A DNA stretch of 64,000 bases from a virus (IMGVR_UViG_3300027963_000034:186552-250551); one strand, 5' to 3'. Positions 1,606 to 18,993 are shown, counted from the first letter of the stretch. Notes: generated by a model not told the origin, from the letters alone. Numbers and translations: made by a program.

Positions 1606-2010
1606 TTAGATTTTGTTTTTTATTTCTTCAATTTCTATTTCTAAATCTGTCAACTTTTCTTTATTTTTTTCTTCTACCTGATTAATCGTATTTTCCATTT
1701 CATTAAGTAATTGCGCTTTTTCGGTTTCACTTAACCAACCATCCTCACCAATACCTTTGGCTTCGGCGGCCGCAAGTCTTTGTGCAATTGTTGCTAATTT
1801 AATTAAGTGGTCATCGTTTTTAACCGATACCTCAATCAAATCTTTAATGATTGGGGCTATGACGGTTGCTTCACCAACATTGCGAATTAATTTACGAAGC
1901 GATTCAATCAGTTCGGAAATATTTTTCTTTTTGTTTTGTTGGTTATCGTATATGTCTTTAAATAATGATGATAAGTTTTTACCATCAAATAATTGAAATT
2001 CGCTTGCCAT
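1606..2010 (-). CDS. hypothetical coiled-coil protein
   Basis: 134-aa ORF abutting its neighbours. C-terminal Glu/Lys-rich heptad-like stretch (EKNKEKLTDLEIEIEEIKNKI). Confidence 0.45.
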   Translation of the reverse strand: MASEFQLFDGKNLSSLFKDIYDNQQNKKKNISELIESLRKLIRNVGEATVIAPIIKDLIEVSVKNDDHLIKLATIAQRLAAAEAKGIGEDGWLSETEKAQLLNEMENTINQVEEKNKEKLTDLEIEIEEIKNKI

Positions 2011-2783
2011 TATAATATGTTGTTTCTTACTATATAATTATAAAGTTCTTCACTTATTAGATTATATCCTTTTTTATTAGGATGTTTTGACGGTATAACG
2101 TCAAATGGTTCCGGATATTCCCACGCAGTTTCATCAGATATTTTTACAATAAAATCTCTAATAGTTTGTTTACCAAATCCCCAATAGTTTTTTGTATTTA
2201 TTAAATGTGTAACATCATCACCCCTTCTCAAATCTTGTACCATCATATCAAACGCATCACAAAATACATATTTTACACCATAACTCTCTAACATCTTTTG
2301 TAAGAAAATAATATAGTTTTGATTTATTATATTGTAATAATTTTGATTAAACATATTTTCTAAAAAGAAACGTTTATAATCTTCTAAAAATCCATTGTAT
2401 TTATCATCTCCAAATTTATATGATTCAAAAAATTTATGAGGTAATAAAGTAAGTTCTTTTATTGACCAACTTATCCACTCGCCTTTTGGTAAGAAATGAA
2501 CATGGTCTCTTAAAGATGAACTCCACATAATTACTACTAAATCTCCTTCGTGGATTTTTCCGTTTCTTAAATCATTAATAACTTCATTGAATATTAAATT
2601 ATTTGCTTTACCACTCCATCCATTATTTTCGTGGTCACAATTTAATTTTTCTGCTAATCGTATTGGCCAAGAATGTTTATTCCTAAAATCTTTAAGAAAC
2701 ATTCTATCTTTTAATTTTTGTTCTTCATCTATAATAGCACCCTGGCCTTCTGTCCAACTATCTCCGTATGCGTATAATTTCAT
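2010..2783 (-). CDS. SGNH/GDSL-family hydrolase (esterase/deacetylase-like), paralog 1 of 5
   Basis: N-terminal YGDSWTEG (GDS(L) block I with the catalytic Ser). Same motif position as the other four paralogs in this window. Confidence 0.6.
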   Translation of the reverse strand: MKLYAYGDSWTEGQGAIIDEEQKLKDRMFLKDFRNKHSWPIRLAEKLNCDHENNGWSGKANNLIFNEVINDLRNGKIHEGDLVVIMWSSSLRDHVHFLPKGEWISWSIKELTLLPHKFFESYKFGDDKYNGFLEDYKRFFLENMFNQNYYNIINQNYIIFLQKMLESYGVKYVFCDAFDMMVQDLRRGDDVTHLINTKNYWGFGKQTIRDFIVKISDETAWEYPEPFDVIPSKHPNKKGYNLISEELYNYIVRNNIL

Positions 2784-4480
2784 TATTTACTAATTAAATA
2801 TTTTCCTAATACTAAATAATCCATATCACAATTATGAAATGTCCAAATAGCTTTTTGTGGGTCATTAGTCATTGTATGGTCTTTTAAGTTGAATGATGTA
2901 TTTAATAGAATTGGTGTTCCTGTTAGTTTTTCAAATTCCTTTAATAATTCATAGTAAAGTGGGTTATCCTCTCTTTTTACAGTCTGTATCCTTGCAGAAT
3001 TATCAACATGCGTTACTGACGGAATGTTTACATCCTTTTTAACTTTAACAACCTGATTCATATAAGGAACATCTTCTTCTGATATAAAATACTTTTGATA
3101 ATCTTCAATTGTAACCGATGGAGCAAATGGTCTAAACATTTCTCTCTTTTTGACAACCTTATTAATTCTATCTCTAATGTCGGACAAATGTGGATTAGCC
3201 AATATAGAACGATTACCCAATGCTCTTGCACCAAATTCAGTCCTACCTTGAAACCATCCTATGATATTACCCTCTTCAATTAATTTTGCAACTTGTTTAC
3301 ATAAGATTTCATCGGTATCAAACATTACAACTTTTTTTCTATGATTTTGTAATATAATTTTAAGTAATTCAGGATTACTCCACTCTTCGCCTAAATATGG
3401 AGATTGATTATCACCACCTTTTACTTTTGGATGGCCTAATGTTTGGTGATAATGATATAAACATGCACCAATTGCCGAACCGGCATCCGATGGTGCAAAT
3501 GGAATCCACACATTTTTAATTGATGTAAATGTTTTAATTTTACCATTAGCAGTTCCGTTATATGCACATCCTCCACCCAATACTAAATTTTCACTATTCC
3601 AAATATTTGTAATTCTATTGATGATAAAATATAATGCACTTTCATACCATCTTTGTAATGATGCTGCAAGGTCTTTATGATGTTGTTCTATTGGTTCATC
3701 TTTGAAACGTGGAGGAAATCCAATTAAATCAATCAACTTATCATTAAACATATCGTTATCCGATGTATGCCATGTAAAGTAAGACATATCCATCTTTACA
3801 ATATCAATTTCACCACCAATAGTAGCAACCTTATCAAATGTATTATTATATTTTTGATTATCACCATATGGAGCTAATCCCATAACTTTGTATTCACCTT
3901 CGTTTGGTTTGAATCCTAAATAAGCAGTAAATGCTGAATAAACTAATCCCAAAGAATCTGGAAATTGTAATGTTTGTATTGTATGAAATCCTTTATCATC
4001 ACACATTGTAGCGTATACCGAATGTCTTTCTCCTACTCCGTCAATTGATAAACCTATTGCTTTATCAAATGGTGATGTATAGTAAGATAGTGCCAAATGT
4101 GAATGATGGTGTAATGAATATAAAATTTCTCCATCATATCCAATTGATTTTAATATTTCTGTTAAGTTACCTTCTGTTTCATTCCATCTCTTTAAGAATT
4201 GTCTCCATTTTATAGGATGTCTTAAACCACCCCACTTACCTATCGTTTCTCTAACTCTTTCAAATTTATGGTTTGGGTTCTCATACCAACAAACCATATC
4301 AATTTCATCAATTGTTATCTTTGTATATTCCAAACACCATTGAATTGCTTTAAACGGAAAAGAACTATCATGCTTTTCGCCGGATAGTTTCTCTTCTTCA
4401 ATTGCACATATAACTTTACCATCTATTACAATTGCTGCTGCTGAATCGTGGTAAAATCCTGATAAACCTAATTGTATCAT
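2783..4480 (-). CDS. carbamoyltransferase (NodU/CmcH/NovN family)
   Basis: N-terminus MIQLGLSGFYHDSAAAIVIDGKVICAIEEEKLSGEKHDSSFPFKAIQWCL matches the canonical carbamoyltransferase start (ILGxSxxYHDSAAAL..DG..V.A..EER..R.KHD..FP). 565 aa is the expected size. Confidence 0.85.
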   Translation of the reverse strand: MIQLGLSGFYHDSAAAIVIDGKVICAIEEEKLSGEKHDSSFPFKAIQWCLEYTKITIDEIDMVCWYENPNHKFERVRETIGKWGGLRHPIKWRQFLKRWNETEGNLTEILKSIGYDGEILYSLHHHSHLALSYYTSPFDKAIGLSIDGVGERHSVYATMCDDKGFHTIQTLQFPDSLGLVYSAFTAYLGFKPNEGEYKVMGLAPYGDNQKYNNTFDKVATIGGEIDIVKMDMSYFTWHTSDNDMFNDKLIDLIGFPPRFKDEPIEQHHKDLAASLQRWYESALYFIINRITNIWNSENLVLGGGCAYNGTANGKIKTFTSIKNVWIPFAPSDAGSAIGACLYHYHQTLGHPKVKGGDNQSPYLGEEWSNPELLKIILQNHRKKVVMFDTDEILCKQVAKLIEEGNIIGWFQGRTEFGARALGNRSILANPHLSDIRDRINKVVKKREMFRPFAPSVTIEDYQKYFISEEDVPYMNQVVKVKKDVNIPSVTHVDNSARIQTVKREDNPLYYELLKEFEKLTGTPILLNTSFNLKDHTMTNDPQKAIWTFHNCDMDYLVLGKYLISK

Positions 4481-5100
4481 TTTTTAAAATTTATATCGTA
4501 TCTAATGCCCAATGCGGGTTCAAACTTGGTAACGCGCGCATTACCATATAATACTGAATATTTTACCATATTTCTAAACTTACCATTCATTTCTAAATAG
4601 AATCGTTCTGTAATACGAACTTCTTTTGTAAATCCAACAATAAAATACCAATTTGTACTTGACTTTACATTGATATTATGGGTTAAATCAAGTAACGATT
4701 TTTCTAAATAGTAACGTAAAAATCCAACACCAAAAGAAAAATCAAACCCATATTTTAAAGGTGTTATATAATACATAGCCATACCAAATCTTTTATTTGA
4801 ACTTAATATAAATCTATCGGTTTCACTATAATACTTATTCTGAAAATCATCTGGGTAAATTACTTTGTCTCTATATATATCAAGTCCAAATCCATCTTCT
4901 TTTGGTTCTCTTCTTCTTTCGTAGTAAGCATTACCATATGGAGAAACTCCTAAACTAATACTAGTCCAATGTTCATATTCTGGTGCATCATCAATATACT
5001 CTTTAACATAAGAAATAGTTTTAATTTTTTTCAATTTATATTCTTGTGCGGTAGAAACAAGCGACAATAATATCATTGATAATATTAATAATTTTTTCAT
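4477..5100 (-). CDS. secreted protein, possible outer-membrane beta-barrel
   Basis: Bacteroidetes-style signal peptide MKKLLILSMILLSLVSTAQ. Alternating aromatic/hydrophobic beta-strand pattern, ending in aromatic-rich residues (YDINFKK). Confidence 0.4.
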   Translation of the reverse strand: MKKLLILSMILLSLVSTAQEYKLKKIKTISYVKEYIDDAPEYEHWTSISLGVSPYGNAYYERRREPKEDGFGLDIYRDKVIYPDDFQNKYYSETDRFILSSNKRFGMAMYYITPLKYGFDFSFGVGFLRYYLEKSLLDLTHNINVKSSTNWYFIVGFTKEVRITERFYLEMNGKFRNMVKYSVLYGNARVTKFEPALGIRYDINFKK

Positions 5101-5111
5101 AGTTTTTATTT

Positions 5112-5804: not shown

Positions 5805-5806
5805 AG

Positions 5807-6067
5807 TTATCTTTGTTTGAATTTTTCAATAGTTTCTTTTATTTGATAAAATATAGAACCTACGTCATCATCCTTTTCAAACATTTCACGACTATCAATT
5901 TGTCGTAATGCCTCCAGTAATGCTTCGTTTTTTTGTAATTCCGATTGTATAAAATCATCGGTTTCTTCTATAACTTCTTCGTATTTTTCTAATTTAGAAA
6001 GAAGATTGAATATTGTATATAAGGTCGATATCAAACATACAATTAAAATTATTATTATTATTTTCAT
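5807..6067 (-). CDS. small membrane-anchored protein
   Basis: N-terminal TM helix MKIIIIILIVCLISTLYTIFNLL followed by a charged coiled segment. Confidence 0.35.
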   Translation of the reverse strand: MKIIIIILIVCLISTLYTIFNLLSKLEKYEEVIEETDDFIQSELQKNEALLEALRQIDSREMFEKDDDVGSIFYQIKETIEKFKQR

Positions 6068-6068
6068 A

Positions 6069-6704: not shown

Positions 6705-6707
6705 TTT

Positions 6708-6920
6708 TTATTTTTTTAATCCGTATTTTATAAATTTATACCATATTCTTTCATGAATATAATATTGAATGGGTTTATATATTAATTCTGCTATCCCAAA
6801 TGCAGCTCCAACTTTAATTGAACCACTTACTAACCACATTAATAAGAACCCGATTAAGGTACTTACAATTCGATATGAGATGGTTTTTGCTATGTGTCTC
6901 TTACGCTCTACTACCATCAT
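6708..6920 (-). CDS. small integral membrane protein
   Basis: 70 aa with two hydrophobic helices (TISYRIVSTLIGFLLMWLVSG ... VGAAFGIAELI). Confidence 0.4.
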   Translation of the reverse strand: MMVVERKRHIAKTISYRIVSTLIGFLLMWLVSGSIKVGAAFGIAELIYKPIQYYIHERIWYKFIKYGLKK

Positions 6921-7260
6921 TCTTCATTTTTCCACTACGGATTGCAGTACCACTAATTGCGGCTACATCCGTTGGTGGTTCGTGATAGATTACATCATAT
7001 CCCACACCTCTACCATAGTTCACCGATTCAATATCTGGGATGATTGATAATAATATTTTATTCCAATTATTTTGGAAAAATGGTTCATTACGAAGTTCAA
7101 ACATAACTTCTTGAGCAGTTTTAGGATTGTTTTCATCTATCTGAACATCTCTAATTGCTACCCAAACATTTTTACCTTTTTCCAATTGTTGATTAATTAA
7201 CCATTCGTGGCCTTTATGCCAATTTTGCCATCTTCCGATGTACATTGCGTATCTTTTCAT
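6901..7260 (-). CDS. cytidylyltransferase-like nucleotidyltransferase (NMN adenylyltransferase-like)
   Basis: YIGRWQNWHKGH fits the (H/T)xGH motif of the nucleotidyltransferase alpha/beta-phosphodiesterase superfamily (compare GRFQPFHxGH in NMNATs). C-terminal ISGTAIR fits ISxTxIR. Confidence 0.5.
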   Translation of the reverse strand: MKRYAMYIGRWQNWHKGHEWLINQQLEKGKNVWVAIRDVQIDENNPKTAQEVMFELRNEPFFQNNWNKILLSIIPDIESVNYGRGVGYDVIYHEPPTDVAAISGTAIRSGKMKNDGSRA

Positions 7261-9969: not shown

Positions 9970-10050
9970 AATATAAATTTTTTTTGTTAATAATACCTTA
10001 TATAGTTCAAATACTATACCATATGTATTTTTTTGACAAAATGTCTTAAA

Positions 10051-10704
10051 TTATTTAGATTTTATGTAATTTTGTCTTTCTATGATTGTGCTCATATGGT
10101 CTGCCCAATGCATGATGTACTGAATGTTTGATTTTAAATATTTAGATGTATCATATACTTTGAAATATTTTTCGTTATCTTCATCATAAAGACCATCAGT
10201 AAGTTTAATACCGAAATATTCATTTTCACTTATTACAATACCATATAAAGATAAAGTATATAAAGTTCTATCGGTGATAGCCATAAATGAATTTTTATTA
10301 TTTCTTGTATAAACTTCTCCTTTATTTTTAATATGCCATTCACTATCATTAGGTGCATAATGCAGCTCATCTTTTGTGCCTAATTTACCTAAATCATGAT
10401 GAAGTGCTACAAATATTAATTCTTCTTCACTAAAATCACAAATCCCACCAGATTCTTCAAAAGTTTTTTTCATTTTTAAAGCATTCTTACATACGTTAAA
10501 AATATGGTCAATATAACCACCGGTATACGCATTGTGATAATTTAAGTTACCAGATGCAGGAGATACTATTAGATTTCCACCTAATTCTGTTTCCGAATAC
10601 ATATGGAGTAATTTATCCAATCTTTCACCTTTAAAATATTTTTTGATAATTGCGATAAATCTATCGTAATTTGCTTTTAATTCTTGTTCTGTCTTTTGTT
10701 TCAT
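10051..10704 (-). CDS. HD-domain phosphohydrolase
   Basis: LIFVALHHDLGK contains the H...HD metal-binding signature. 217 aa. Confidence 0.55.
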   Translation of the reverse strand: MKQKTEQELKANYDRFIAIIKKYFKGERLDKLLHMYSETELGGNLIVSPASGNLNYHNAYTGGYIDHIFNVCKNALKMKKTFEESGGICDFSEEELIFVALHHDLGKLGTKDELHYAPNDSEWHIKNKGEVYTRNNKNSFMAITDRTLYTLSLYGIVISENEYFGIKLTDGLYDEDNEKYFKVYDTSKYLKSNIQYIMHWADHMSTIIERQNYIKSK

Positions 10705-10733
10705 AATTTAGAGTTTAATTGTTTATAATACCC

Positions 10734-10765
10734 TAATATACGACAAATAATCGATATTACCAAAT
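10734..10765 (-). promoter_or_regulatory. conserved phage promoter motif (sigma-A-like)
   Basis: taatatacgac-N11-attaccaaat, immediately upstream of the HD-domain gene. Confidence 0.5.
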
Positions 10766-11422
10766 TTATATTAAGCTATTTCTTTTTTTAATCATTTCAA
10801 ATCCAACATTACCAGCAATAACTATTCTATCTTTAGTAGATTTTTTAGCTGATGCGGGTACGTGAGGAACTCTTCCTTCCATTATAATTATATCATTTTC
10901 TTTTGGGAGAATATTATAAATAATTCCATCTTTACCCTCTATGTATAACACACCATCGTTACCTTCTAAATTATCCGGCATTTGAACATAGTGAACATAT
11001 GTGTAATCACACTTGAAAAGATTACTATTACTATTGAGTTCGGCGTGATTGTGCATTATTATTTCTGTTTCTGTTTCTGTTAAAAAGTTAACCTGCTTTG
11101 GATTCTTTGCTCTTACTATATTTATCCAACCCATTGTGTTTATTTTATTATATGGTAATTTTATATTTTCATTAAATAATGTAGTACATGCTTTTATGCC
11201 TTCTTTAACTATTTCATATATTTTTTTAGTTGATTCAATATCACCAATAAAATTTAAATGTTCGTTCCATTCTCTATAAAATATAAAAGCATCATATGGT
11301 CTTGAATCTTCCATATGTTTTATAATACTGAGGCATTCTTCTAACACATCATCTTTCATATGTGAAATATCAAAATTGGTTTTCCATATGTAAGTCTCAT
11401 CATCAAAGTATATCTTTTCCAT
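10766..11422 (-). CDS. putative 2OG-Fe(II) oxygenase superfamily protein
   Basis: MHNHAELNSNSNLFKCDYTYVHYV resembles the HxH...S-g-v-Y-Y block of phage-type 2OG-Fe(II) oxygenases. A later His (RVPHVP) and Arg (DRIVIAG) could complete the HxD/H...H...R triad. Confidence 0.35.
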   Translation of the reverse strand: MEKIYFDDETYIWKTNFDISHMKDDVLEECLSIIKHMEDSRPYDAFIFYREWNEHLNFIGDIESTKKIYEIVKEGIKACTTLFNENIKLPYNKINTMGWINIVRAKNPKQVNFLTETETEIIMHNHAELNSNSNLFKCDYTYVHYVQMPDNLEGNDGVLYIEGKDGIIYNILPKENDIIIMEGRVPHVPASAKKSTKDRIVIAGNVGFEMIKKRNSLI

Positions 11423-11428
11423 ATTATA

Positions 11429-11887
11429 TTAATGTTTTTTTATTTTTTTATATCCAATACTTTCGACTAAATCAAATACTATATCATTCCAATCTTCAAT
11501 TTCTACTTCAATAGTTTTATAATTTTTTAACATAATACCACTTACTTTATTATAAAACCATTTTGGTGCAGATTTTGGTCTATCTATTTTTTTAGTAACA
11601 TACAAATTGTATCCAAAGCAAGTATCTTTATCTAATTCTTTAAACCACACATATCCGATTACTCTATTGTTGATGTACAATAAAAACAAATTATCGCCAG
11701 TTTGTATTCTATTTATAGCATCATCAATTGTAAACATTTCATTCCACTTATATTCTTTATGAAAATAATTTATTAAAAGTTGTAATGAATCTTTATATGT
11801 TTCCGACCACGTTTTATTATAAATGTGTACAATGTGTAAATCAGCTTCTTCGATGTAATCTTCTTTATTTAATTGATAATATTTCAT
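11429..11887 (-). CDS. hypothetical protein
   Basis: 152-aa ORF with stop/start overlap to its neighbours. No motif recognised. Confidence 0.4.
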   Translation of the reverse strand: MKYYQLNKEDYIEEADLHIVHIYNKTWSETYKDSLQLLINYFHKEYKWNEMFTIDDAINRIQTGDNLFLLYINNRVIGYVWFKELDKDTCFGYNLYVTKKIDRPKSAPKWFYNKVSGIMLKNYKTIEVEIEDWNDIVFDLVESIGYKKIKKH

Positions 11888-12464
11888 TTAGATAATAGTT
11901 TTCCTTTTCAATTATTTTATTTAATTCATCCAAATCCGTTTCGGATAACATATTAAAGACCTCTTCTTTTGTTAGTACATCATTGTATTCTTTGGAAAAA
12001 TCAAAATCGGTTGGGTCATAACTCATATTTTCATCATCAAAAATATTTTTTAAATTATCTAATTTTGTAAAAATAAAATTTGATTTGTTATAATACATTT
12101 TTTCCCAAAGTTTTGGAATAAAATGGCCGCCATAAATTGTTAATTTTTTAAATAATTTGTTTATGTTTTTATATTTGTCAAAGTCTTTCGTATTTTTTTT
12201 TAATTTTAAATTACCAACATCCGAATTTGGGATTGCAGTATGGTTGAACCAAAGATATTCTGTATATAAACCGGATTTAAAATGTTGCAAAACATCTCTA
12301 TAAATAAAAAATGTTTTTTCTTTTAATGTTTTATTAAACAATTCTTCGTATTTGATTTCTTCAATATTGTTTGGATTTGTATTTTTTTCTAACCAACGTG
12401 TTCCACATTTTAAAGGTGCAATTACATCAAACTTATCCGTGTAAGAAAATTTTTTTACTATCAT
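11865..12464 (-). CDS. hypothetical protein, possible sulfotransferase-like
   Basis: N-terminal VIAPLKCGTRWL resembles the sulfotransferase 5'-PSB loop (PKxGTTW). Confidence 0.3.
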   Translation of the reverse strand: MIVKKFSYTDKFDVIAPLKCGTRWLEKNTNPNNIEEIKYEELFNKTLKEKTFFIYRDVLQHFKSGLYTEYLWFNHTAIPNSDVGNLKLKKNTKDFDKYKNINKLFKKLTIYGGHFIPKLWEKMYYNKSNFIFTKLDNLKNIFDDENMSYDPTDFDFSKEYNDVLTKEEVFNMLSETDLDELNKIIEKENYYLNEILSIK

Positions 12465-13069
12465 AAAATTTTAATTAATTTTTGGTATATCCATTGGTAA
12501 AATTGAAGATGTCCTTTAAATGACAAATGTGCGTCGTCTATTTTACCATTTGTTGCGTCTCGTATTCTATCGTAAAATAAAATGTCCTCTTCAACTGACC
12601 ACAATAAAGTTTTTATGTTTTTTTCGTTTAATACACTTATTAAAAAATTAATTCTATTGTTTTGTCTATTTTTATATTTTTTATTTTTTGCAAAATGATA
12701 TGAAAAATTCAATATAGTTTGATATTGTTCTTCATTATATTTCTCTTTATGATATATTACATCATGTGCCGAAATCCATTTATTTTCATTATTTAAAGAT
12801 GGTATATCATATCTGTAACTGAAAGTTTTTCCTATAATTACTATATCATCCGATTTAATTTTGTTAAAGTTATCAATTATTAAATCAATTATAATATCAT
12901 TACTACAACCATTTACACCATTATTTATTACGTTCATATTTAATAAATTACCTAAATGATTACACCATAAATCATCTTTATCTTTTTTATATTTTTGATA
13001 ATATTCATATTCTGGTGTGCAACCATGTCCATAGGTAAAAGAATCACCGAAACACCAAATGTTATTCAT
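12461..13069 (-). CDS. SGNH/GDSL-family hydrolase, paralog 2 of 5
   Basis: N-terminal IWCFGDSFTYGHG. Confidence 0.55.
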   Translation of the reverse strand: MNNIWCFGDSFTYGHGCTPEYEYYQKYKKDKDDLWCNHLGNLLNMNVINNGVNGCSNDIIIDLIIDNFNKIKSDDIVIIGKTFSYRYDIPSLNNENKWISAHDVIYHKEKYNEEQYQTILNFSYHFAKNKKYKNRQNNRINFLISVLNEKNIKTLLWSVEEDILFYDRIRDATNGKIDDAHLSFKGHLQFYQWIYQKLIKIL

Positions 13070-13715
13070 TATTAATTCGTTTTATATATTCAATAGATAG
13101 TTCCTTTTGAATATTATAAGTATAATGTATATCTTCTTCGTTTTTCCATTCTTTATATTTTAACCATTGATAATAATTTGGTTTAAAATCCAATTCGTTT
13201 GGTAAATGAAAATTATATTGTGTTTTATTGAAAACTTTATTACCATAATATAGATTATCTTTTTTAATAAAAACATGATAAACTTTTACACCTTTTTTTT
13301 TCAAATTATTTAATACTTTGGATATGGATGTAAATAGTTTTATATTGTAATCGTAATTATATTTTATAAAATAATCAAGTATAGCTGCACTATTGGTTCT
13401 TAATAAATTTAAACCTTCTACTGTTATTATATTTTGATTATCATCTAATAGGGTATTTGTAGACTTTAAATCACCCATCTCATTTACCATCAACCCTCTA
13501 GCCAAAAAACTAAAATTTATTAAAACAATATCGTCGGGATTTATATTATCATAACAATCTAAAATTTTATGAAATATTTGTTCATTGGATATTCCCGTTT
13601 CACCTAGGTTTATATAATGCATATTAAAATGTTCGGCAATATACTCACCGAAATTTTTTGATTTTTTAACTACTGCAAATGAATCACCAAAATGATATAA
13701 TTTATTATTTTTCAT
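13062..13715 (-). CDS. SGNH/GDSL-family hydrolase, paralog 3 of 5
   Basis: N-terminal KLYHFGDSFAVV. Confidence 0.5.
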   Translation of the reverse strand: MKNNKLYHFGDSFAVVKKSKNFGEYIAEHFNMHYINLGETGISNEQIFHKILDCYDNINPDDIVLINFSFLARGLMVNEMGDLKSTNTLLDDNQNIITVEGLNLLRTNSAAILDYFIKYNYDYNIKLFTSISKVLNNLKKKGVKVYHVFIKKDNLYYGNKVFNKTQYNFHLPNELDFKPNYYQWLKYKEWKNEEDIHYTYNIQKELSIEYIKRINNE

Positions 13716-14415
13716 TCAACCACTTATAATCGATGTGTTCATTTACAAAATTAATAATCTCTTCCGATTTAGTAATTTTTAAAGATATGTCATTGCTTTT
13801 GTTCATTTTAATCAAATTAAAATTCGGCTTCATTTTTTTAATGATGTTTGTAAATTCATTTAATTCGGACATGTTTATTATTATATCACATTTATTTAAT
13901 CCCCAAAAATATTGTGACCTAAAATTATTTAAATGCATTTTATTAAAATTTAAATAATCATTTGTAATATTTCTTTTTATGATATTGTAGATATCTTTAT
14001 CATATTGTTTTAATTCCATATCATTATTTGGTTCTTTTGTGGTATCTAATTCAAAAAATATTTTCGAAAAAATTTCTATTATCTCAACCTCATTCAGTTT
14101 TTCAAAATTGTATTTTAATTCTACACGATTTTCTTTACACATTAAAACCATATATTTTAATGCGGATATAAATCTATCTTCCGATGGTCGATAAATTCCT
14201 ATTGTTTTTTTATCTGGAAATATATTTTTATAATAATCATATGTGTTATGATAGTGAGCAAATGGCCTATTACTATCGATTTGGTCATACATAATTTTGT
14301 TCAATGTAGTATCACCAAAATCAACCTTAAATCTCCAATGTAACATAGAATATATAATACTGGTTGATGCGTTCTTTGGTATAGGTAAATAAACAAATTG
14401 ATTTTCTATTAACAT
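13705..14415 (-). CDS. hypothetical protein, possible carbohydrate-sulfotransferase-like
   Basis: FVYLPIPKNASTSI fits the Sulfotransfer_2-type 5'-PSB motif ((I/V)PK-x-(G/A)-(S/T)-(T/S)). Confidence 0.35.
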   Translation of the reverse strand: MLIENQFVYLPIPKNASTSIIYSMLHWRFKVDFGDTTLNKIMYDQIDSNRPFAHYHNTYDYYKNIFPDKKTIGIYRPSEDRFISALKYMVLMCKENRVELKYNFEKLNEVEIIEIFSKIFFELDTTKEPNNDMELKQYDKDIYNIIKRNITNDYLNFNKMHLNNFRSQYFWGLNKCDIIINMSELNEFTNIIKKMKPNFNLIKMNKSNDISLKITKSEEIINFVNEHIDYKWLNEK

Positions 14416-15713
14416 TATATTATTTTTTTTATATTTCTTACTTGATTTGAGATTTTTAGGTTTTTATATAACAATAAATCTAAAAAAGAATTTTTTGTAG
14501 TTACTTCATTCATTAGTTTTTCATTACATAGTGTAACCCAATCTTTACACACTTTATAATTTTTTTCATAATCTTGCATAAATTTATCAACGAATTCTAT
14601 AAACAAATTTGGATTATTTTTATATTCCAAAGCTTCATTATAAAATGGATGGGCCGGAACATTTAAAATTGTCTCAATCATTTTCAATGGATATGGGTGT
14701 ATAGATATAAATGGAACATTGGCCAGTATTAATCCATACGACTTTTCGGAAAGATATCCCGATGATAAATTATTTGTCCAATCCCAAGTTTCTGACATAA
14801 TATGCATCTTTGACATTGGTAATATTCTCATTAAATAATCTAAATAATGTTCAATATTTTCTATCCAACTTATATCTTCAAAGTCATCACCTTCGGTTAT
14901 ATTAAAATTTATCCTCGCATCAGCTTTTAAAGCATCACCATATCTTTTAAACTCAGTATTTTTACAATTATCTACTCTAGATAAATAAATTTTAGGATGA
15001 TTAAATTCTGACAATTTTAACATATAGTCCTTTCTATGTCGTTTGTGATATCTGATAGAAAAACACAAATCATATGGTTGATTTAATTTTTCAAAAACAT
15101 TTTTAAATTCATAATACCATCTAATAGAAAGTAATTCATTCCATTGATGTATGGTATTGGTTAATGCAAAATTACTATTTGGATAATGTAATTTTATATC
15201 ATTATCTATAAAAATATTATCATCTATAATAAAATGATTTTTTAATCTTTCTATTTGAGTTTCTAAATCTAAAATACTATGATAGGGTATACCATCGTAT
15301 TTTATATAAGACTTTTCGGTTCTTAATAAAAATACAAACCAGTTAGATTTACTCGATATAGCATCTGCAATCCATTTCATTATGGGAATATCATTAACAC
15401 CAAATTCTGCACCTTGTGCACCTCTGTGTGCTGACACTCCTGTTATTTTATTAATACATTTTATACTTGAGAATTTTTCATCTCTATTGTATTGATATAG
15501 AATAGACATAAAGTCTATAATATGATAACCATCATCGTTATCATTTAATATTGGGTCAAATATTACTTCAATATCTTTATTATTATATTTACAAAAAATA
15601 CTACCTACGGAGTTATTTAATCTATATGTCCGATTGGTTGTATTGTGTAAGATTTTATAAAATAACGATTTGGTGTAATAGTGATGAATGTATATTTTAT
15701 TTTTATCAATCAC
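14415..15713 (-). CDS. hypothetical protein
   Basis: 432-aa ORF translationally coupled to flanking genes. No motif recognised. Confidence 0.45.
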   Translation of the reverse strand: MIDKNKIYIHHYYTKSLFYKILHNTTNRTYRLNNSVGSIFCKYNNKDIEVIFDPILNDNDDGYHIIDFMSILYQYNRDEKFSSIKCINKITGVSAHRGAQGAEFGVNDIPIMKWIADAISSKSNWFVFLLRTEKSYIKYDGIPYHSILDLETQIERLKNHFIIDDNIFIDNDIKLHYPNSNFALTNTIHQWNELLSIRWYYEFKNVFEKLNQPYDLCFSIRYHKRHRKDYMLKLSEFNHPKIYLSRVDNCKNTEFKRYGDALKADARINFNITEGDDFEDISWIENIEHYLDYLMRILPMSKMHIMSETWDWTNNLSSGYLSEKSYGLILANVPFISIHPYPLKMIETILNVPAHPFYNEALEYKNNPNLFIEFVDKFMQDYEKNYKVCKDWVTLCNEKLMNEVTTKNSFLDLLLYKNLKISNQVRNIKKII

Positions 15714-16039
15714 TATAATATGGATTTATTTTGCTTTTGTGTAGGTGGCCACAAAATATCGTCTATATCTTTCCAATTCTTTAATGGACATTCGTTGTAA
15801 ATTTTAGAAAATATCTTTTTATTTAATGGGCATCCACAATCATTACAAAATGGTTCACCTGTTACTGGTCTTTTTTCTCTAAATTCAGGGCATTGTACAC
15901 ATACATTCCACCTACCCTCTGCTAATTCTTTTTGTTTGTCGGTTGGATTAACGGAGGTTACCCATGCGTCTGCAATTGTAATAATTTTGGATGGGTCTTT
16001 TACCAATCCACTTATTATTTTCTTTAATCCGAAATTCAT
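15713..16039 (-). CDS. Cys-rich hypothetical protein (putative zinc-binding)
   Basis: CVQCPEF...CNDCGCP...NECP cysteine clusters in 108 aa. Confidence 0.4.
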   Translation of the reverse strand: MNFGLKKIISGLVKDPSKIITIADAWVTSVNPTDKQKELAEGRWNVCVQCPEFREKRPVTGEPFCNDCGCPLNKKIFSKIYNECPLKNWKDIDDILWPPTQKQNKSIL

Positions 16040-16210
16040 AACCTATTATTTAAATTTTAAGTATGTTTTAATTTCACTAAATTAAGAAAATTTTCTACTA
16101 CCACTTTTATATTAACCTTATCGGTTGTATTATTTATTTTTTTAATTTTAGATACAAATGCGTCTTTATCACTATACTTTGTATTTTTGTTATTTGTTGT
16201 ACTCATAATA

Positions 16211-18136
16211 TTAATTTAATTTTATTAATTCTACCGAAATTGTTTCATAATTTACTGAGAAATATCCATCTTCTTCTAAATTTAATGCTTCTTCAAACTT
16301 TGTTCCTATTAAATCTTGTGCAATTACACCTCTCCATTTTCCTTCTAAATCTGGATTATTTTTTATTGCATCATCTATAAATTCAAATTCATAAATCTTT
16401 ATACCATTTTCTTGTTCGTATAAGAAATTAATATTTTTCTTTAATCTTTTATCTGACTTTTGTCCATTACAATAAGCACCATCGGCCTGTGTCGCACCAG
16501 CATAATTACAACCATAAACACCATAATAATAACAATAAAAATTTCCAATGTAACCACAATCGTCATAAACACCATTGCATCTCATACAAACTGGTGTATA
16601 ATAACCACATGTAGATGAACCTGGGTCGGAGCCTGCTGAACATAGAGTTCCGTTGCTAACCTCTCCATAACAACCATATCCTGTTACGAATTTACAATCA
16701 TAATCATAATTATGTGTAAGAATTCCATATATTGATTGATTTTCAGTTTCTTCCATTGAGAAAAATAAATCAGATTCTTCTACGTTAATTCTATATGATT
16801 GTAGTTTTTCAAATGAATATAATATATTTTGAACATTTTTAGTTTCAATTAAATTGGTTTCATTATTTAACACTATTATAGTATCTCCAATTGATAGGCC
16901 ATCATACGGAACGATTACTATATTTGTTTCAATAGTATCTTCAATTGCTACATTTATTACTTTAAATATCCTGCCATGTGGTACATCTGAAAAGGTAGAC
17001 CCGTTATCCAACTCTAAATTAATTATTGGGCCGAAGTAGTCAAATGTGGTTTTTTCTACGACTACCGATGATGTTATATTATAATTTTGTGAAAAATTAT
17101 TATAACTACCAGACCAATTATCAGATATTGCAAATGATATTGGGTCAGCAAAATTTATTGATTTAACCTCATCGTTTATAGATAAATTATCTGCGGTAAT
17201 AATCGAATTGTCTTTTAAAACTACTTTTGTAGTAGAATCGGCGTCCAATCTAACAGATACATCAGTTGTTCCATTAGAAACTTTACTAACATATCTAAGT
17301 CTATCCCAAACTTGAACCACCTTATTATCATCAAAATCACAAGAATTTACAATAGGTGCCATATTTGTTTTATTATAAACATATAAGTTTAACGAATCCA
17401 ATTGGCCATACACTAAATCTACACTTCTATAATGAAATGTTTTATTATCAATTAATTCTTGTGTATTATAAATATACTCTTGTATATATTCATCTATTTC
17501 TAAATTTGATTTTAGATTTTCTAATTCTAAAATTGTTTCTATTTTATATAATTTTGGATATACCTTATTGTCAGATGGTGTTATTCTTTTTTTAATACAA
17601 TAATTTGGATGGTTACCATTATCTCTCAAATCTTCCCCGATGTTATCAATTCCTAATTCAATGTCGTCTATATAACATTTTGGAATTGAATTTGGATTGT
17701 TATCATACATTATTTTTAAAAATTCCCAATTATCTTTAGCATATGTATCATCTAACAATGCGGTAGTGTCATATGATATTCTTATAATTAGTTTATTATC
17801 AGAATCATCTATTTGTGGAATAGTTATTGAATTATTTTCTACTGTATGTAAGTGGAATTGTATATCATTTGGTATACAAATTGATTGTGATAAAAATGTG
17901 TGAAATTGACTCGATTGTCCTTCAATTTTAAAATCGTCAAAGACATCTAAATTGGGTTGGGTACTAATTAAATGTATTTCTTGTATATTATTATCTAATA
18001 CAAAATTTGTAAGTGAACCAGAATCAATGTGATTTAGAACATTTACATCTATTGATATATTTGTATTAGTTTCAATTGCTTTAAAAGAACCATCGGTATC
18101 TTTTATAAAGTCTGTACCTATTAGGACTGCTCTCAT
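16211..18136 (-). CDS. tail fibre/tail spike with C-terminal intramolecular chaperone (peptidase S74) domain
   Basis: C-terminus SDKRLKKNINFLYEQENGIKIYEFEF...GVIAQDL matches the S74 auto-cleaving chaperone signature (S-D-x-R-L-K-x-N-I ... G-f-I-A-Q-E). Preceded by an unusual Cys/Tyr/Gly-rich module. Confidence 0.8.
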   Translation of the reverse strand: MRAVLIGTDFIKDTDGSFKAIETNTNISIDVNVLNHIDSGSLTNFVLDNNIQEIHLISTQPNLDVFDDFKIEGQSSQFHTFLSQSICIPNDIQFHLHTVENNSITIPQIDDSDNKLIIRISYDTTALLDDTYAKDNWEFLKIMYDNNPNSIPKCYIDDIELGIDNIGEDLRDNGNHPNYCIKKRITPSDNKVYPKLYKIETILELENLKSNLEIDEYIQEYIYNTQELIDNKTFHYRSVDLVYGQLDSLNLYVYNKTNMAPIVNSCDFDDNKVVQVWDRLRYVSKVSNGTTDVSVRLDADSTTKVVLKDNSIITADNLSINDEVKSINFADPISFAISDNWSGSYNNFSQNYNITSSVVVEKTTFDYFGPIINLELDNGSTFSDVPHGRIFKVINVAIEDTIETNIVIVPYDGLSIGDTIIVLNNETNLIETKNVQNILYSFEKLQSYRINVEESDLFFSMEETENQSIYGILTHNYDYDCKFVTGYGCYGEVSNGTLCSAGSDPGSSTCGYYTPVCMRCNGVYDDCGYIGNFYCYYYGVYGCNYAGATQADGAYCNGQKSDKRLKKNINFLYEQENGIKIYEFEFIDDAIKNNPDLEGKWRGVIAQDLIGTKFEEALNLEEDGYFSVNYETISVELIKLN

Positions 18137-18190
18137 ATTGTTTTTGTTATTTATATTCCTCTATAAATATAATTATAATCTATTTTAATT

Positions 18191-18222
18191 AAATATACAA
18201 CAAAATTTTATAATTACCAAAA
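18191..18222 (-). promoter_or_regulatory. conserved phage promoter motif (sigma-A-like), upstream of the tail-fibre gene
   Basis: aaatatacaac-N11-aattaccaaa. Confidence 0.45.
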
Positions 18223-18226
18223 GTGT

Positions 18227-18241
18227 GCGGGGGTTGGGGGG
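18227..18241. repeat. G-rich motif GCGGGGGTTGGGGGG (copy 1 of 2)
   Basis: Exact core recurs inverted at 26654-26667. Very atypical for a 30%-GC genome. Confidence 0.5.
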
Positions 18242-18279
18242 AACCGGGTCGATTTTTTAAAAAAATTTTTAGGTTACAC

Positions 18280-18993
18280 CTATTGATAGTTATTTACTAT
18301 TTCTTTGAATTGTGGTAATAATCTTTCATATATCACCGAATGACCAGTAACCTTTATATGTGAATCACCTATTTCATCGGCATCTTTTATAACATCATTC
18401 ATAATTTGTTCAAAGTTATCCCACCCATTCCATCCCAAAGGAATCCAATTAGAATAATATCCCACCCATTTTTCAATTGGTATATGAATTGGTATACATC
18501 CCATAGAATTCAATAACACTCCCAATTTTTGAAAGTAAGCGGATGTTAGAGGATTGATTGTTTTATTATGGTAATCGGATATGACATCCAAATCCTCCCA
18601 TATACCACATCCTTTCATTGTTTCTTCCCATAGAGACGAATACCAAAATAAATTATGATTATAGTTTGTAGTATTTCCAGATGGAGGGAAGCTTGGATTA
18701 TTATGATAGTTGAAGCGAGAATTATAAGAAGTTTGTAAAAATACAATATCACCACTTTGAATCTTTGGTAGTGTATCCAGTAAATTAAATAGTATTCTTT
18801 CGTTAGATAATCCTACCTCGGCAAGATTGATATATTCAAATCCCAAATCGTCCGCAATCCGTTTACCCCAAGAATCGGTTAAATTGGTATAAGTCCAACT
18901 ATCACCAAATAGCCACATTTTCTTCATTATCTCCTCAATTTTCGAATCAAATACCAAAAAGGGAACCTTATACCCCAATAGATAAATAAACAA
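18280..18993 (-). CDS. SGNH/GDSL-family hydrolase, paralog 4 of 5
   Basis: MKKMWLFGDSWTY. The GDS block sits 23 residues into the ORF, so the true start is probably the internal Met near 18927. Confidence 0.55.
   Translation of the reverse strand: MFIYLLGYKVPFLVFDSKIEEIMKKMWLFGDSWTYTNLTDSWGKRIADDLGFEYINLAEVGLSNERILFNLLDTLPKIQSGDIVFLQTSYNSRFNYHNNPSFPPSGNTTNYNHNLFWYSSLWEETMKGCGIWEDLDVISDYHNKTINPLTSAYFQKLGVLLNSMGCIPIHIPIEKWVGYYSNWIPLGWNGWDNFEQIMNDVIKDADEIGDSHIKVTGHSVIYERLLPQFKEIVNNYQ

Follow-up and report, generated by a model that had tools for sequence, protein, structure and literature searches.

A lineage-specific AT-rich gene island in a large freshwater phage, most likely for cytoplasmic glycan synthesis and decoration

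Why a phage should carry five GDS-motif hydrolase genes, a carbamoyltransferase and sulfotransferase-like genes near a fibre-like gene, and on what acceptor their products would act, is the question raised by this locus. We analyzed a 64,000-nucleotide stretch (IMGVR_UViG_3300027963_000034:186552-250551), referred to as the window, which comes from an uncultured large freshwater phage. An earlier note had read these genes as a glycan-tailoring set, and our ORF check of the window recovered every ORF it named, on the minus strand and at the coordinates listed below.

A conserved core of genes in fixed order was found in 63 related metagenomic loci. Its members in the window, in that order, were:

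16211-18136, minus strand: fibre-like protein (641 aa) with an S74 domain, the anchor of the module
16057-16206, minus strand: conserved basic ORF (49 aa) ending in KLKHT, at a fixed position after the fibre-like gene
15713-16039, minus strand: Cys-rich protein (108 aa), CxxC...CxxCxC...C; PHROG 13558, E 1e-7
14415-15713, minus strand: predicted GT-B-fold glycosyltransferase (432 aa), best conserved of the module's enzymes, its family seen only in this phage lineage
13705-14415, minus strand: predicted sulfotransferase-fold protein (236 aa) with PKNASTS (5'-PSB-like) and RPSxDRFxS (3'-PB-like) motifs
11429-11887, minus strand: weakly GNAT-like conserved protein (152 aa), Acetyltransf_1 at E 0.029 only

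The fibre-like gene lay no more than 4.5 kb upstream of the GT-B gene in 28 of 28 loci. The Cys-rich protein was encoded upstream of GT-B in 36 of 44 loci, the sulfotransferase-like gene adjoined GT-B in 28 of 38 and the GNAT-like gene lay downstream in 23 of 27. Annotated genes were read in 8 of the 63 loci, and the 49-aa ORF directly followed the fibre-like gene in all eight. The 152-aa protein had no match among PDB sequences, but a protein matched by its family profile at the same position in locus L008 carries a Pfam Acetyltransf_1 match.

The GT-B protein had been counted among the large unknown ORFs completing the set; its identification as a glycosyltransferase strengthens the glycan reading. 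Its 206 homologs all came from metagenomic contigs, the longest of them 337 kb, with none in cultured phages and none in species genomes, the latter scanned with two peptide patterns only.

The 641-aa protein consists of a conserved N-terminal and middle region (residues 1-475), a Cys/Gly/Tyr-rich stretch (about 480-558) and an S74 intramolecular-chaperone domain (559-641), from which its fibre-like identity is taken. The S74 match was just below the Pfam cut-off (E 3.4e-4, 21.3 bits against 22) and clearer in PHROG (E about 4e-7), and the invariant KSD..K..I motif aligned with the first residue of 3gud, the released chaperone chain of GA-1. The C-terminus of this core protein is self-cleaving across the loci, being S74 or, in orthologs from deeper relatives, tandem Hint domains. 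The S74 domain of the tail fibre proposed earlier was thus confirmed; however, the gene's neighbours are enzymes rather than structural genes, no structural module was recognisable around it, and S74 is exchanged for Hint domains in deeper relatives.

The accessory and neighbouring genes of the window were:

2010-2783, minus strand: SGNH/DUF6071-like paralog 1 (257 aa); GDS at residue 7, NNGWSGKAN, C-terminal HPNKKG, no acidic residue before His
12461-13069, minus strand: SGNH-like paralog 2 (202 aa); GDS at residue 8, NNGVNGCSN, DDAH
13062-13715, minus strand: SGNH-like paralog 3 (217 aa); GDS at residue 10, NLGETGISN, EEDIH; no Pfam match of its own
18280-18993, minus strand: SGNH-like paralog 4 (215 aa from the ATG at 18927); GDS at about residue 8
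32465-33403, minus strand: SGNH-like paralog 5 (312 aa), in a second AT-rich islet; GDS at residue 29, NISWDGGSN, EDGHPNELG; no Pfam match of its own
2783-4480, minus strand: NodU/CmcH-family carbamoyltransferase (565 aa)
11865-12464, minus strand: 199-aa ORF, possibly a second sulfotransferase-like protein; PLKCGTRW and YRxxxxHxxS motifs
10766-11422, minus strand: 2OG-Fe(II) oxygenase-like protein (218 aa) flanking the core; PHROG 81 '2OG-Fe(II) oxygenase', E 6e-8
6901-7260, minus strand: small cytidylyltransferase-like nucleotidyltransferase, GRWQNWHKGH
6708-6920, minus strand: DUF2061 membrane protein, following the nucleotidyltransferase
33658-35359, minus strand: two ORFs (373 and 199 aa) of the second islet, with no Pfam or PHROG assignment
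58722-59798, minus strand: 358-aa protein; in relatives its family lies within the island and adjoins SGNH copies
4477-5100: exported protein, overlapping the start of the carbamoyltransferase
36886-38031: lipoprotein-like exported protein

To judge from their alignments, the five GDS ORFs are genuine paralogs and belong to a divergent SGNH/DUF6071-like family. Their pairwise similarity was far above chance (13062-13715 with 18280-18993, E 2.7e-10; 2010-2783 with 32465-33403, E 5.6e-7 by blastp; 12461-13069 with 18280-18993, E 5.8e-6, and with 13062-13715, E 1.3e-5), and the GDS position in the paralogs makes the ATG at 18927 the likely true start of 18280-18993. A 15-member family alignment showed an invariant GDS Ser, one Gly, the Asn of GxSN and a C-terminal His. 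An acidic residue 2 or 3 positions N-terminal of the His was present in four of the five window copies and absent from 2010-2783. Pfam gave no match for three of the five copies. DUF6071 passed its cut-off in 2010-2783 (32.9 bits against 27, E 6.6e-8), where Lipase_GDSL and Lipase_GDSL_2 both scored E ~1e-3; Lipase_GDSL_2 was below cut-off at E ~1e-3 in two copies. Family-wide, Lipase_GDSL_2 and Lipase_GDSL each matched 8 of the 15 members and DUF6071 matched 4. The family profile retrieved relatives with PF13472, PF00657 or PF19547 but no significant PDB match. The assignment as five SGNH hydrolases accordingly stands for paralogy and at superfamily level, but four of the five copies miss the Pfam cut-off and the canonical GxND block III is absent from all five. 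Nor is the number as exceptional as had been suggested: SGNH copies ranged from 0 to 5 per locus of about 20 kb, so the window, with five, marks the upper end of the spread within the lineage.

The carbamoyltransferase appears solid at family level, with Carbam_trans_N (E 2.3e-57), Carbam_trans_C (E 3.8e-65) and PHROG 1601 'Nol-like carbamoyltransferase' (E 1e-118), and cyanophage carbamoyltransferases were about 31% identical to it. The NodU equivalog model scored 148 bits against a cut-off of 1000, so that the NodU/CmcH family is supported but a NodU equivalog is not.

Of the two sulfotransferase-like genes proposed, 13705-14415 is predicted to have the sulfotransferase fold with PAPS-binding motifs. 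The second, 11865-12464, is a possible candidate by its motifs. Both loops (PLKCGTRW and PIPKNASTSI, respectively) were present and kept in homologs, and K18, R22, R55, T67 and H113 of 11865-12464 were invariant in 23 homologs, but Sulfotransfer_1 matched 1 of these 23, a PDB search gave no match, and hhalign aligned the two families only across the 3'-PB-like motif (E about 1e-3, probability 22-25%).

The nucleotidyltransferase and DUF2061 genes are possible substrate-activation genes and are only tentatively placed in the island. In six related loci the island also contained an APS-kinase-like gene (Pfam E 4e-19), which lay immediately upstream of the nucleotidyltransferase in L005-L007, where gene order was read. 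The 373-aa protein at 33658 was weakly related to the 358-aa family (hhalign E 3e-4, probability 40%) and showed no significant link to GT-B. A TEKT...PF(V/I)I motif was common to the 358-aa protein and GT-B, at non-significant hhalign E values of 0.012 and 0.006.

Accessory content varied among loci of at least 17 kb, with SGNH copies in the range given above and the carbamoyltransferase in 11 of 19. A GT4 gene fused to an FkbM-type methyltransferase, GT9 genes and DUF5672 genes (unknown function) were each found in 3 of the 8 annotated loci, and an NAD-dependent sugar epimerase/dehydratase in one (L008). GT9 (heptosyltransferase-family) and GT4 genes occurred alongside the carbamoyltransferase, and 2OG oxygenases were recurrent. 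The glycan-tailoring character of the set was thus upheld by GT-B and, in relatives, by the GT4, GT9, methyltransferase, APS-kinase-like and epimerase genes.

The toolkit genes had a GC content of 25.7% versus 30.7% (p 2e-5) and were the GC minima of the window. Their proposed clustering around the tail fibre holds for 11.4-19 kb only: the carbamoyltransferase and one SGNH copy lie 12 kb from the fibre-like gene on one side, a further SGNH copy 14 kb from it on the other. No signal peptide or membrane segment was found in any toolkit protein, all of which were checked; the proteins start straight at the catalytic motif. PAPS- and carbamoyl-phosphate-dependent chemistry is cytoplasmic, and no PAPS-synthesis gene was found within the 64-kb window. 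Unless packaged in the virion, the toolkit proteins would act in the cytoplasm, and the absence of secretion signals makes stripping of host surface glycans for receptor destruction, as the earlier note envisaged, unlikely.

We consider the island most likely an AT-rich set of cytoplasmic enzymes that build and decorate sugars. That the phage uses this lineage-specific accessory set on its own fibre-like protein or virion is a tentative proposal, modelled on the virion glycoconjugates of mycobacteriophages and giant viruses. A phage-made acceptor is favoured, if barely, over host envelope precursors because GT-B is confined to the lineage, highly conserved in comparison with the variable accessories and always linked to the fibre-like gene. 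The same linkage would equally be expected of a hypervariable host-range or moron region. Both virion and DNA glycosylation have been discussed for aquatic jumbo phages (PMC12619734).

Almost as likely is that the same enzymes act on a host envelope glycan precursor, such as an intermediate of LPS core, O-antigen, capsule or glycolipid at the cytoplasmic face; this corresponds to the main idea of the earlier note in its remodelling form. The chemistry fits known envelope decorations: carbamoyl-heptose occurs in the LPS core of Pseudomonas, and the Nod factors and LPS of rhizobia bear sulfate and carbamoyl groups. The GT9 and GT4 genes found with the carbamoyltransferase agree with this, and the exported proteins encoded in the window, such as 4477-5100 and 36886-38031, suggest that the phage may also add envelope proteins. 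LPS gene clusters and carbamoyltransferases are known from large cyanophages (PMC3037559), whose glycan clusters are similar to this island, but the families of the island were not seen outside its phage lineage. Moreover, the GT-B and sulfotransferase-like core enzymes belong to no Pfam family and had no detected bacterial relatives, and in this they differ from host LPS genes captured recently. The related loci read contained no polyprenyl-phosphate glycosyltransferase, flippase or membrane acyltransferase/Gtr-type component, and the core stays the same in phages that are 40-93% identical and presumably infect different hosts with different glycans.

It is improbable that the island hypermodifies phage DNA, with GT-B glycosylating a modified base, as T4 glucosyltransferases do and as in the 5hmC-glycan clusters reported in 2023, and the other enzymes decorating the DNA-linked sugar or making its donor. 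The 2023 clusters reportedly adjoin phage structural genes, use a kinase and a cytidylyltransferase for donor activation and yield heptose products; the nucleotidyltransferase here and the APS-kinase-like, GT9 and 2OG-oxygenase genes of relatives are consistent with such a scheme, and strong conservation combined with restriction to one lineage is what one would expect of a DNA-modifying enzyme. However, neither a cytosine C5-methyltransferase/TET pair nor a thymidylate-synthase-like hydroxymethylase was found in the window or the loci read, GT-B is not basic (pI 7.0), and the module is anchored at the fibre-like gene, not at replication genes. We know of no sulfation, carbamoylation or SGNH esterase chemistry on DNA sugars.

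More improbable still is a peptide or protein maturation system, in which an ATP-grasp-like N-terminal domain and Hint/S74 self-cleavage process the 49-aa ORF or the fibre-like C-terminus, and tailoring falls to the glycosyltransferase, the sulfotransferase (for example by tyrosine O-sulfation), oxygenases, SET methyltransferases and, in relatives, a radical-SAM enzyme. The 49-aa ORF is conserved and fixed in position, L003 and L004 have B12-binding radical-SAM genes directly upstream, and in L007 and L008 the interval from the 49-aa ORF to GT-B contains SET-domain and 2OG-oxygenase genes. The PDB matches of the fibre-like N-terminal domain were solely ATP-grasp Mg/ATP loops, but at E 1.6 this similarity lacks significance. 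The 49-aa ORF is rich in lysine and has no obvious leader/core architecture, no RiPP recognition element or protease was recognised, and the epimerase, GT4 and GT9 sugar-nucleotide genes indicate real glycan synthesis.

Least probable are virion-borne SGNH esterases that remove esters from polysaccharide on the host surface during adsorption or release, like the sialate and O-antigen O-acetylesterases of tailspikes: some viruses and phages do use SGNH domains as receptor-destroying esterases, several copies lie near the fibre-like gene and copy number varies among relatives as host-range functions would, but the window paralogs are small stand-alone proteins (~200-310 aa) with no fibre or spike attachment domain or signal peptide, match no PHROG structural family and are interleaved with PAPS- and nucleotide-sugar-type biosynthetic genes.

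Returning to glycan synthesis for the phage's own fibre-like protein or virion, GT-B would transfer a sugar from a nucleotide-sugar to the acceptor, the sulfotransferase would add sulfate from PAPS, and the carbamoyltransferase would O-carbamoylate a sugar hydroxyl with carbamoyl phosphate and ATP. The SGNH paralogs may attach O-acyl esters or cleave them, at differing positions, and the GNAT-like protein may N-acylate an amino sugar. The variable accessories (SGNH copies and carbamoyltransferase, with GT4, GT9 and methyltransferases in relatives) would diversify the glycan between related phages. Should the acceptor instead be a host envelope precursor, the surface of the infected cell would be altered, with the receptor masked, superinfection blocked and progeny kept from adsorbing to infected cells or debris.

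All the ORFs that the earlier note had assigned to a glycan-tailoring toolkit around a tail fibre were present in the window with the same boundaries. The toolkit genes and the neighbours that the argument needs are:

2010-2783, SGNH-like paralog 1
2783-4480, NodU/CmcH-family carbamoyltransferase
11429-11887, GNAT-like protein (152 aa)
11865-12464, candidate sulfotransferase-like protein
12461-13069, SGNH-like paralog 2
13062-13715, SGNH-like paralog 3
13705-14415, protein with a sulfotransferase fold
14415-15713, GT-B (432 aa)
15713-16039, minus strand, Cys-rich 108-aa protein
16057-16206, minus strand, lysine-rich 49-aa ORF
16211-18136, fibre-like protein (641 aa)
18280-18993, SGNH-like paralog 4
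32465-33403, SGNH-like paralog 5
33658-34779, 373-aa ORF
34760-35359, large ORF
58722-59798, member of a 358-aa family

The mean GC content of the toolkit genes was 25.7%, against 30.7% for the other window genes (Mann-Whitney p 2e-5). GC is lowest across the window in the three toolkit-bearing stretches, 10000-18000, 32000-36000 and 58000-60000 (22-27% vs ~31%), and a common compositional history is suggested for the dispersed pieces.

We fetched 63 related loci, searched them with profiles built for the toolkit families, and read the annotation in eight. The core was found in a fixed order of fibre-like gene, 49-aa ORF, Cys-rich 108-aa gene, GT-B and 152-aa GNAT-like gene, with a sulfotransferase-fold gene flanking GT-B on either side.

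Gene linkage and accessory genes in the related loci (synteny denominators are loci with enough flanking DNA; L003-L008 are individual related metagenomic loci)
Fibre-like gene at most 4.5 kb upstream of GT-B: 28/28 loci
Cys-rich gene upstream of GT-B: 36/44 loci
Sulfotransferase-fold gene adjoining GT-B: 28/38 loci
GNAT-like gene downstream of GT-B: 23/27 loci
Carbamoyltransferase: 11/19 loci of 17 kb or more
GT4 of ~900 aa fused to an FkbM-type methyltransferase, GT9 heptosyltransferase-family protein, and DUF5672 protein: each in L005-L007
SET-domain proteins: L007, L008
B12-type radical-SAM enzyme: L003, L004
NAD-dependent sugar epimerase/dehydratase: L008

Loci of at least 17 kb carried 0 to 5 SGNH copies (median 1), and we therefore regard these copies as accessories, and the carbamoyltransferase likewise. 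Further methyltransferases and 2OG oxygenases were present among the eight annotated loci. The window itself contained no homologs of the relatives' GT4, GT9, DUF5672 or radical-SAM genes.

The C-terminal ~80 residues (559-641) of the product of 16211-18136 showed the S74 intramolecular-chaperone signature, with PHROG matches at E 4e-7 and a Pfam Peptidase_S74 score just below the cut-off (21.3 bits, cut-off 22). Within the KSD..K..I motif, S560, D561, K565 and I568 were invariant in 6 orthologs. The best PDB match of the region (E 0.32) was 3gud, the released GA-1 chaperone, which starts exactly at the cleavage Ser. The C-terminus is probably a member of the S74 family, and it shares its position and the Ser-Asp...Lys..Ile cleavage motif with K1F endosialidase, T5 pb1 and GA-1 gp12. 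However, no known fibre resembles its N-terminal 470 residues, and S74 is swapped in 8 orthologs. Residues 1 to ~475 had no known match by tblastn in 50,697 phage records, among family models or in the PDB. "Fibre-like" is the most that can be said of 16211-18136.

Thirty-one orthologs of the fibre-like protein carried the Cys-rich region and S74. In eight deeper-branching orthologs both were replaced by two tandem Hint/intein-like domains with a terminal ...HNK, and the first ~470 residues were conserved in the two types. Two of these Hint-type orthologs (L007 4953-7259 and L008 4969-7296) matched Pfam Intein_splicing at 1e-17 to 1e-18 and Hint at 6e-13 to 2e-19, and the other six were found with a profile built from the L007 and L008 proteins. 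Because Hint domains substitute in the deeper orthologs, the conserved feature is a self-removing C-terminal module and not S74 itself. We also considered whether the central part of the 641-aa protein contains a Hint domain (with a ...THN end), and rejected this, as there were only weak partial matches to the N-terminal half of the Hint profile.

A broader N-terminal alignment matched, in the PDB, only the Mg/ATP loop of biotin-carboxylase-type ATP-grasp enzymes (four matches, E 1.6-2.4, non-significant). The aligned motif, tDfikDtDGsfkxiEtNTNI, is at 18026-18115 of the window (residues 8-37 of the protein), and this part of the protein could contain a permuted ATP-grasp-like domain. Further along, "EYIQEYI...YRSVDLVYG" resembles a RimK-type hinge by eye.

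The 49-aa lysine-rich ORF directly followed the fibre-like gene in 8/8 loci read; its length was 47-49 aa across loci and its KLKHT C-terminus was conserved. The Cys-rich 108-aa protein (CxxC...CxxCxC...C; PHROG 13558) is probably a zinc ribbon. L007 has another fibre gene (20064-21242) at the end of its island, of a more conventional type with collagen repeats and Peptidase_S74. For 325-1605 of the window, a baseplate identity was rejected, with no Pfam, PHROG or PDB support.

Of the large ORFs that had been left as unknown, 14415-15713 could be assigned: it has two Rossmann-like domains in GT-B topology. The search returned 206 homologs with 46-93% identity, and among the 120 matches listed none had a Pfam domain. 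The GT-B itself matched no Pfam, NCBIfam or PHROG family, and tblastn found no homolog of it in cultured phages (50,697 phage records); nor was one found when 185,579 species genomes were scanned with two peptide patterns only. The other two large ORFs, 33658-34779 and 34760-35359, stayed without assignment. A TEK...PF motif is shared by GT-B with 33658-34779 and with 58722-59798, and neither relationship was significant (E 0.16 for the former; E 0.012 and 0.006 for the latter). The alignment of the 358-aa family matched 33658-34779 at E 3e-4 with a probability of 40%, and no relatives of 33658-34779 were found in the IMG/VR scan. The profile of the 152-aa GNAT-like family gave no useful match to PDB sequences.

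The earlier note had named two sulfotransferase-like genes, which fared differently. For 13705-14415 we found 54 homologs, all without annotation. A PKNASTS motif (5'-PSB-like loop) and an RPSxDRFxS motif (3'-PB-like) were invariant or nearly so in 21 homologs, with P12, S16, S18, R75, R80 and S83 invariant and K13 and T17 nearly so. The protein itself did not match any curated sulfotransferase model. Scanned singly, its homologs gave sub-threshold matches to four different sulfotransferase Pfam families, including Sulfotransfer_3 in 6/21 and Sulfotransfer_2 once (E 6e-5). The AlphaFold model from the 21-homolog alignment was confident (pLDDT 90.3), and the protein has a P-loop-like sulfotransferase fold. 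Since the match is distant but consistent, we accept 13705-14415 as a sulfotransferase fold with PAPS-type motifs.

On the other hand, 11865-12464 is a candidate sulfotransferase-like protein only, with one of its two motifs linked to the 13705 family. Its 24 homolog clusters conserve PLKCGTR and YRxPxxHxxS, together with K18, R22, R55 and S63, the analogues of PAPS-motif residues. Comparison of the two families with hhalign joined the 3'-PB-like motif alone (E about 1e-3, probability 22-25%). Sulfotransfer_1 was matched by 1/23 members, and the family profile had no match among PDB sequences.

No APS-kinase homolog was found within the window by tblastn. In contrast to the window, an APS-kinase-like gene was present in six related loci by profile search (Pfam E 4e-19). 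The region 6708-7260 (minus) holds a small cytidylyltransferase-like nucleotidyltransferase (6901-7260) followed by a DUF2061 membrane protein. In L005-L007 an APS-kinase-like P-loop kinase lies directly before the nucleotidyltransferase that matches 6901-7260 (L005 6023-7576, L006 5074-6102 and L007 3869-4896), with DUF2061 further downstream. PHROG 10255, of 230 aa and annotated "kinase", is matched in its C-terminal half by the window nucleotidyltransferase. The pair could serve sulfate or sugar activation, or NAD salvage.

The five ORFs with a GDS motif, previously described as five SGNH hydrolases, form one paralog network. Pairwise comparison, with which phmmer agreed, joined 13062-13715 to 18280-18993 (E 2.7e-10) and 2010-2783 to 32465-33403 (E 5.6e-7). 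The remaining copy, 12461-13069, matched 18280-18993 (E 5.8e-6), 13062-13715 (E 1.3e-5) and 2010-2783 (E 2.4e-4). We aligned 15 family members, namely the five window copies and ten from related phage loci. The GDS motif (block I) was present in all five window copies, at residues 7-10 or, in two N-terminally extended copies, 29-30, and its Ser was invariant in 15/15 members. The NxGxxGxSN motif with invariant Gly and Asn was also found in 5/5 window copies, and the C-terminal His was invariant across the alignment. Four window copies have an acidic residue two or three places ahead of this His (DDAH, EEDIH, GDSH, EDGH); 2010-2783 has PSKH, with no acid there. The canonical GxND block III was absent from all five.

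Only 2010-2783 passed a curated cut-off (DUF6071). Two copies matched Lipase_GDSL_2 at E about 1e-3, below the cut-off, and three had no match to curated SGNH models in Pfam. Across the 15 members, Lipase_GDSL_2 matched 8/15 (best E 4e-7), Lipase_GDSL 8/15 and DUF6071 4/15. A profile search of 5.8 billion proteins found relatives recorded with PF13472, PF00657 or PF19547, one of which was named "lysophospholipase L1-like esterase". Against PDB sequences the profile found esterases, none significant (rhamnogalacturonan acetylesterase E 0.23). The paralogy is real, and we describe the window copies as a divergent SGNH-like family with catalytic Ser and His retained, in which superfamily membership is putative.

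Two further genes adjoin SGNH-like copies. A stand-alone lipoyl/biotinyl-attachment domain protein (33387-33695, minus; Biotin_lipoyl E 4e-15, ETDKA motif), whose top NCBIfam matches are E2 lipoyl domains, lies between paralog 5 and the 373-aa ORF and is odd cargo for a phage. A 321-aa protein (19074-20039, minus) next to paralog 4 ends in a Thr/Pro-rich tail (VTPTTDTTTNTTPTRPGFTGGGG). Thr/Pro-rich tails are O-glycosylation acceptors in other systems.

The carbamoyltransferase 2783-4480 was unambiguous at family level. Carbam_trans_N (residues 4-340) matched at E 2e-57 (195 bits, cut-off 24) and Carbam_trans_C (residues 398-565) at E 4e-65 (219 bits, cut-off 27), and the PHROG "Nol-like carbamoyltransferase" at E 1e-118. 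Its closest phage homologs, with ~31% identity, were from Ralstonia phage RsoM2USA and cyanophages S-SSM7 and P-SSM2. We place it in the NodU/CmcH family from these domain matches; the narrower "NodU-type" label went too far, as the score for the NCBIfam NodU equivalog (NF041651) was 148.5 bits against a cut-off of 1000. The stop of 4477-5100 (minus) overlaps the carbamoyltransferase start by 4 bases. This ORF encodes 207 aa and matched no family. The N-terminus of its product clearly resembles a signal peptide (MKKLLILSMILLSLVSTAQE), and the protein may be exported or located in the outer membrane, and co-transcribed with the toolkit.

No signal peptide or hydrophobic segment was found in any toolkit protein, and the SGNH-like copies start at the catalytic strand. 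The substrates of such enzymes, namely PAPS, nucleotide sugars, and carbamoyl phosphate together with ATP, are found in the cytoplasm. The island therefore acts within the host cell during infection, on a target that is put together in that cell. From the enzymes of the window and its relatives, it is fairly secure that the island makes a glycan and decorates it with sulfate, carbamoyl, acyl and methyl groups.

For the acceptor of this glycan we lean slightly towards the fibre-like protein or another virion component. A phage-made acceptor is slightly favoured because the GT-B and sulfotransferase-like families seem lineage-restricted, the accessories differ between loci around an unchanging core, and the linkage to the fibre-like gene is absolute. 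A fuller version, which we offer tentatively and consider rather doubtful as a whole, is that the six-gene core (fibre-like, 49-aa, Cys-rich, GT-B, sulfotransferase and GNAT-like genes) would be a dedicated system making a sulfated glycan on the phage's own fibre or virion. This glycan would be further acylated or carbamoylated, and related phages would differ in it through their variable sets of SGNH, carbamoyltransferase, GT4, GT9 and methyltransferase genes.

Host envelope precursors are nearly as likely as the acceptor. The chemistry is of the classic LPS or capsule type, and GT9 and GT4 are present in relatives. Comparable LPS/glycan clusters, whose role is not settled either, are found in large T4-like cyanophages and explain why these genomes are larger (PMC3037559). 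Seroconversion of the GtrABC/Oac type is disfavoured: unlike those systems, the toolkit lacks the membrane components, and Pfam searches of the window and the loci read found no membrane-embedded flippase, GtrB-type GT2 or acyltransferase-3.

Glycan hypermodification of DNA is a real third option. Phage GT-Bs resembling PglH, BshA, MshA and T4 beta-glucosyltransferase were shown to attach hexose, HexNAc, heptose and Kdo to 5hmC, and the clusters that encode them are close to structural genes (bioRxiv 10.1101/2023.12.21.572611). The island shares with these clusters, which make 5hmC-linked mono- to trisaccharides, a GT-B like those four enzymes, kinase/cytidylyltransferase genes for donor activation and a structural-gene neighbourhood. 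Against this option, its GT-B is not basic, and no base-precursor enzymes (C5-methyltransferase/TET or hydroxymethylase) were found in the window or the loci read. We know of no action of the island's decorating enzymes on DNA. Maturation of a peptide or protein by the island, and SGNH esterases borne on the virion, are minor rivals.

The window resembles known systems in part. Like cyanophages P-SSM2, S-SSM7 and S-SM2, it belongs to a large aquatic phage with clustered sugar-modifying genes and a NodU/CmcH-family carbamoyltransferase. However, it is of a different lineage, with a core fixed beside a self-cleaving fibre-like gene, and SGNH paralog 1, GT-B, the sulfotransferase-like protein and the fibre-like protein had no tblastn match in the 50,697 phage records. 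The virion-glycosylation cassettes of mycobacteriophages and the glycan clusters of giant viruses place soluble virus-encoded glycosyltransferases by structural genes, and these enzymes modify viral proteins in the cytoplasm. The window would share this arrangement. To our knowledge, neither of those systems has a sulfotransferase, carbamoyltransferase or SGNH set.

Rhizobial Nod factors are decorated by NodU/NolO (carbamoyl), NodH with NodPQ (sulfate), NodL (acetyl), NodS (methyl) and NodZ (fucosyl). The island has in common with these enzymes carbamoyl, sulfo and acyl decoration and, in relatives, methyl decoration and an APS-kinase-like gene. This is resemblance only: the window is without NodABC, its sulfotransferase is not detectably NodH-like, its carbamoyltransferase falls short of the NodU equivalog, and its context is a phage. 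Full-text searches on phage sulfotransferases and DUF6071 did not bring up a comparable island.

We conclude that the window is part of a large uncultured freshwater phage. It is AT-rich (GC 22-36%), with closely packed genes nearly all on the minus strand, and over the first 5.4 kb it is identical with a contig from a JGI metagenome of freshwater origin (sample 3300010160). Metagenomic contigs carrying homologs of window genes were 120-340 kb, with GT-B relatives on contigs up to 337 kb. A megablast search with 20 kb of the window found no near-identical phage among the 50,697 phage records. Judged by one AAA protein (56% identity), Microcystis phage Mel-JY01 is the nearest cultured relative; a more distant Microcystis-phage match of the same protein is annotated CobS. 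The gene content includes a GP88-family protein, peptide deformylase, UvdE, Hsp20 and ATP-dependent DNA ligase. A cluster at 62333-63959 (minus) holds seven tRNA genes (Ser, Arg, Asp, Thr, Glu, His, Cys). The "moraphages" described in 2025 are aquatic jumbo phages, 200-300 kb in size, that have heat-shock genes, several glycosyltransferase orthogroups in their core and predicted Bacteroidota hosts; the same paper cites mycobacteriophage virion glycosylation (PMC12619734). Compared by description only, the window has Hsp20, low GC and related contigs up to 337 kb.

Signal-peptide or lipoprotein-like N-termini were also seen in 36886-38031, 39981-40715, 22512-22826 and 29895-30203 (all minus). 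The first of these encodes 381 aa with FG-GAP/VCBS-like Asp-rich repeats by eye, and 22512-22826 has a Thr-rich tail. Such N-termini suggest a Gram-negative host, and the phage seems to export several proteins to the host envelope. Scattered through the window is also a family of small paralogs linked by weak blastp, with ~90-117 aa and most starting MLTIKN or MLVIKN (27719-28310, 28625-28894, 50802-51450 and 52950-53267, minus). Two other paralog pairs are 40624-41217 with 44585-44944, which have a common SWIM-like zinc-finger end, and 43303-43650 with 52612-52941.

Glycan genes are common in large aquatic phages, and the substrates of most are not known. The GT-B, sulfotransferase-like and SGNH-like families are uncurated and abundant in freshwater metagenomes. 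What is new relative to known phage glycan-modifying islands is these three families together with an unusually well-defined conserved core. The lineage offers a clean handle, with a small invariant core at one fibre-like gene and varied tailoring enzymes around it. The island chemistry is plausible and the module testable, and nothing contradicts current ideas; a small curiosity is that orthologs of one protein can have tandem Hint domains in place of S74. Should the island act on the host envelope or on DNA, it would provide new enzyme families for superinfection exclusion or anti-restriction. Should it act on the virion, virion glycosylation would extend to aquatic phages whose hosts are probably Gram-negative, and to glycans that bear sulfate or carbamoyl groups, and we know of no tailed phage that carries such a glycan. 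The system would then be a bacterial-virus counterpart of giant-virus fibril glycosylation, and would matter for host recognition, for adhesion to mucus or exopolymer, and for grazing or immune evasion.
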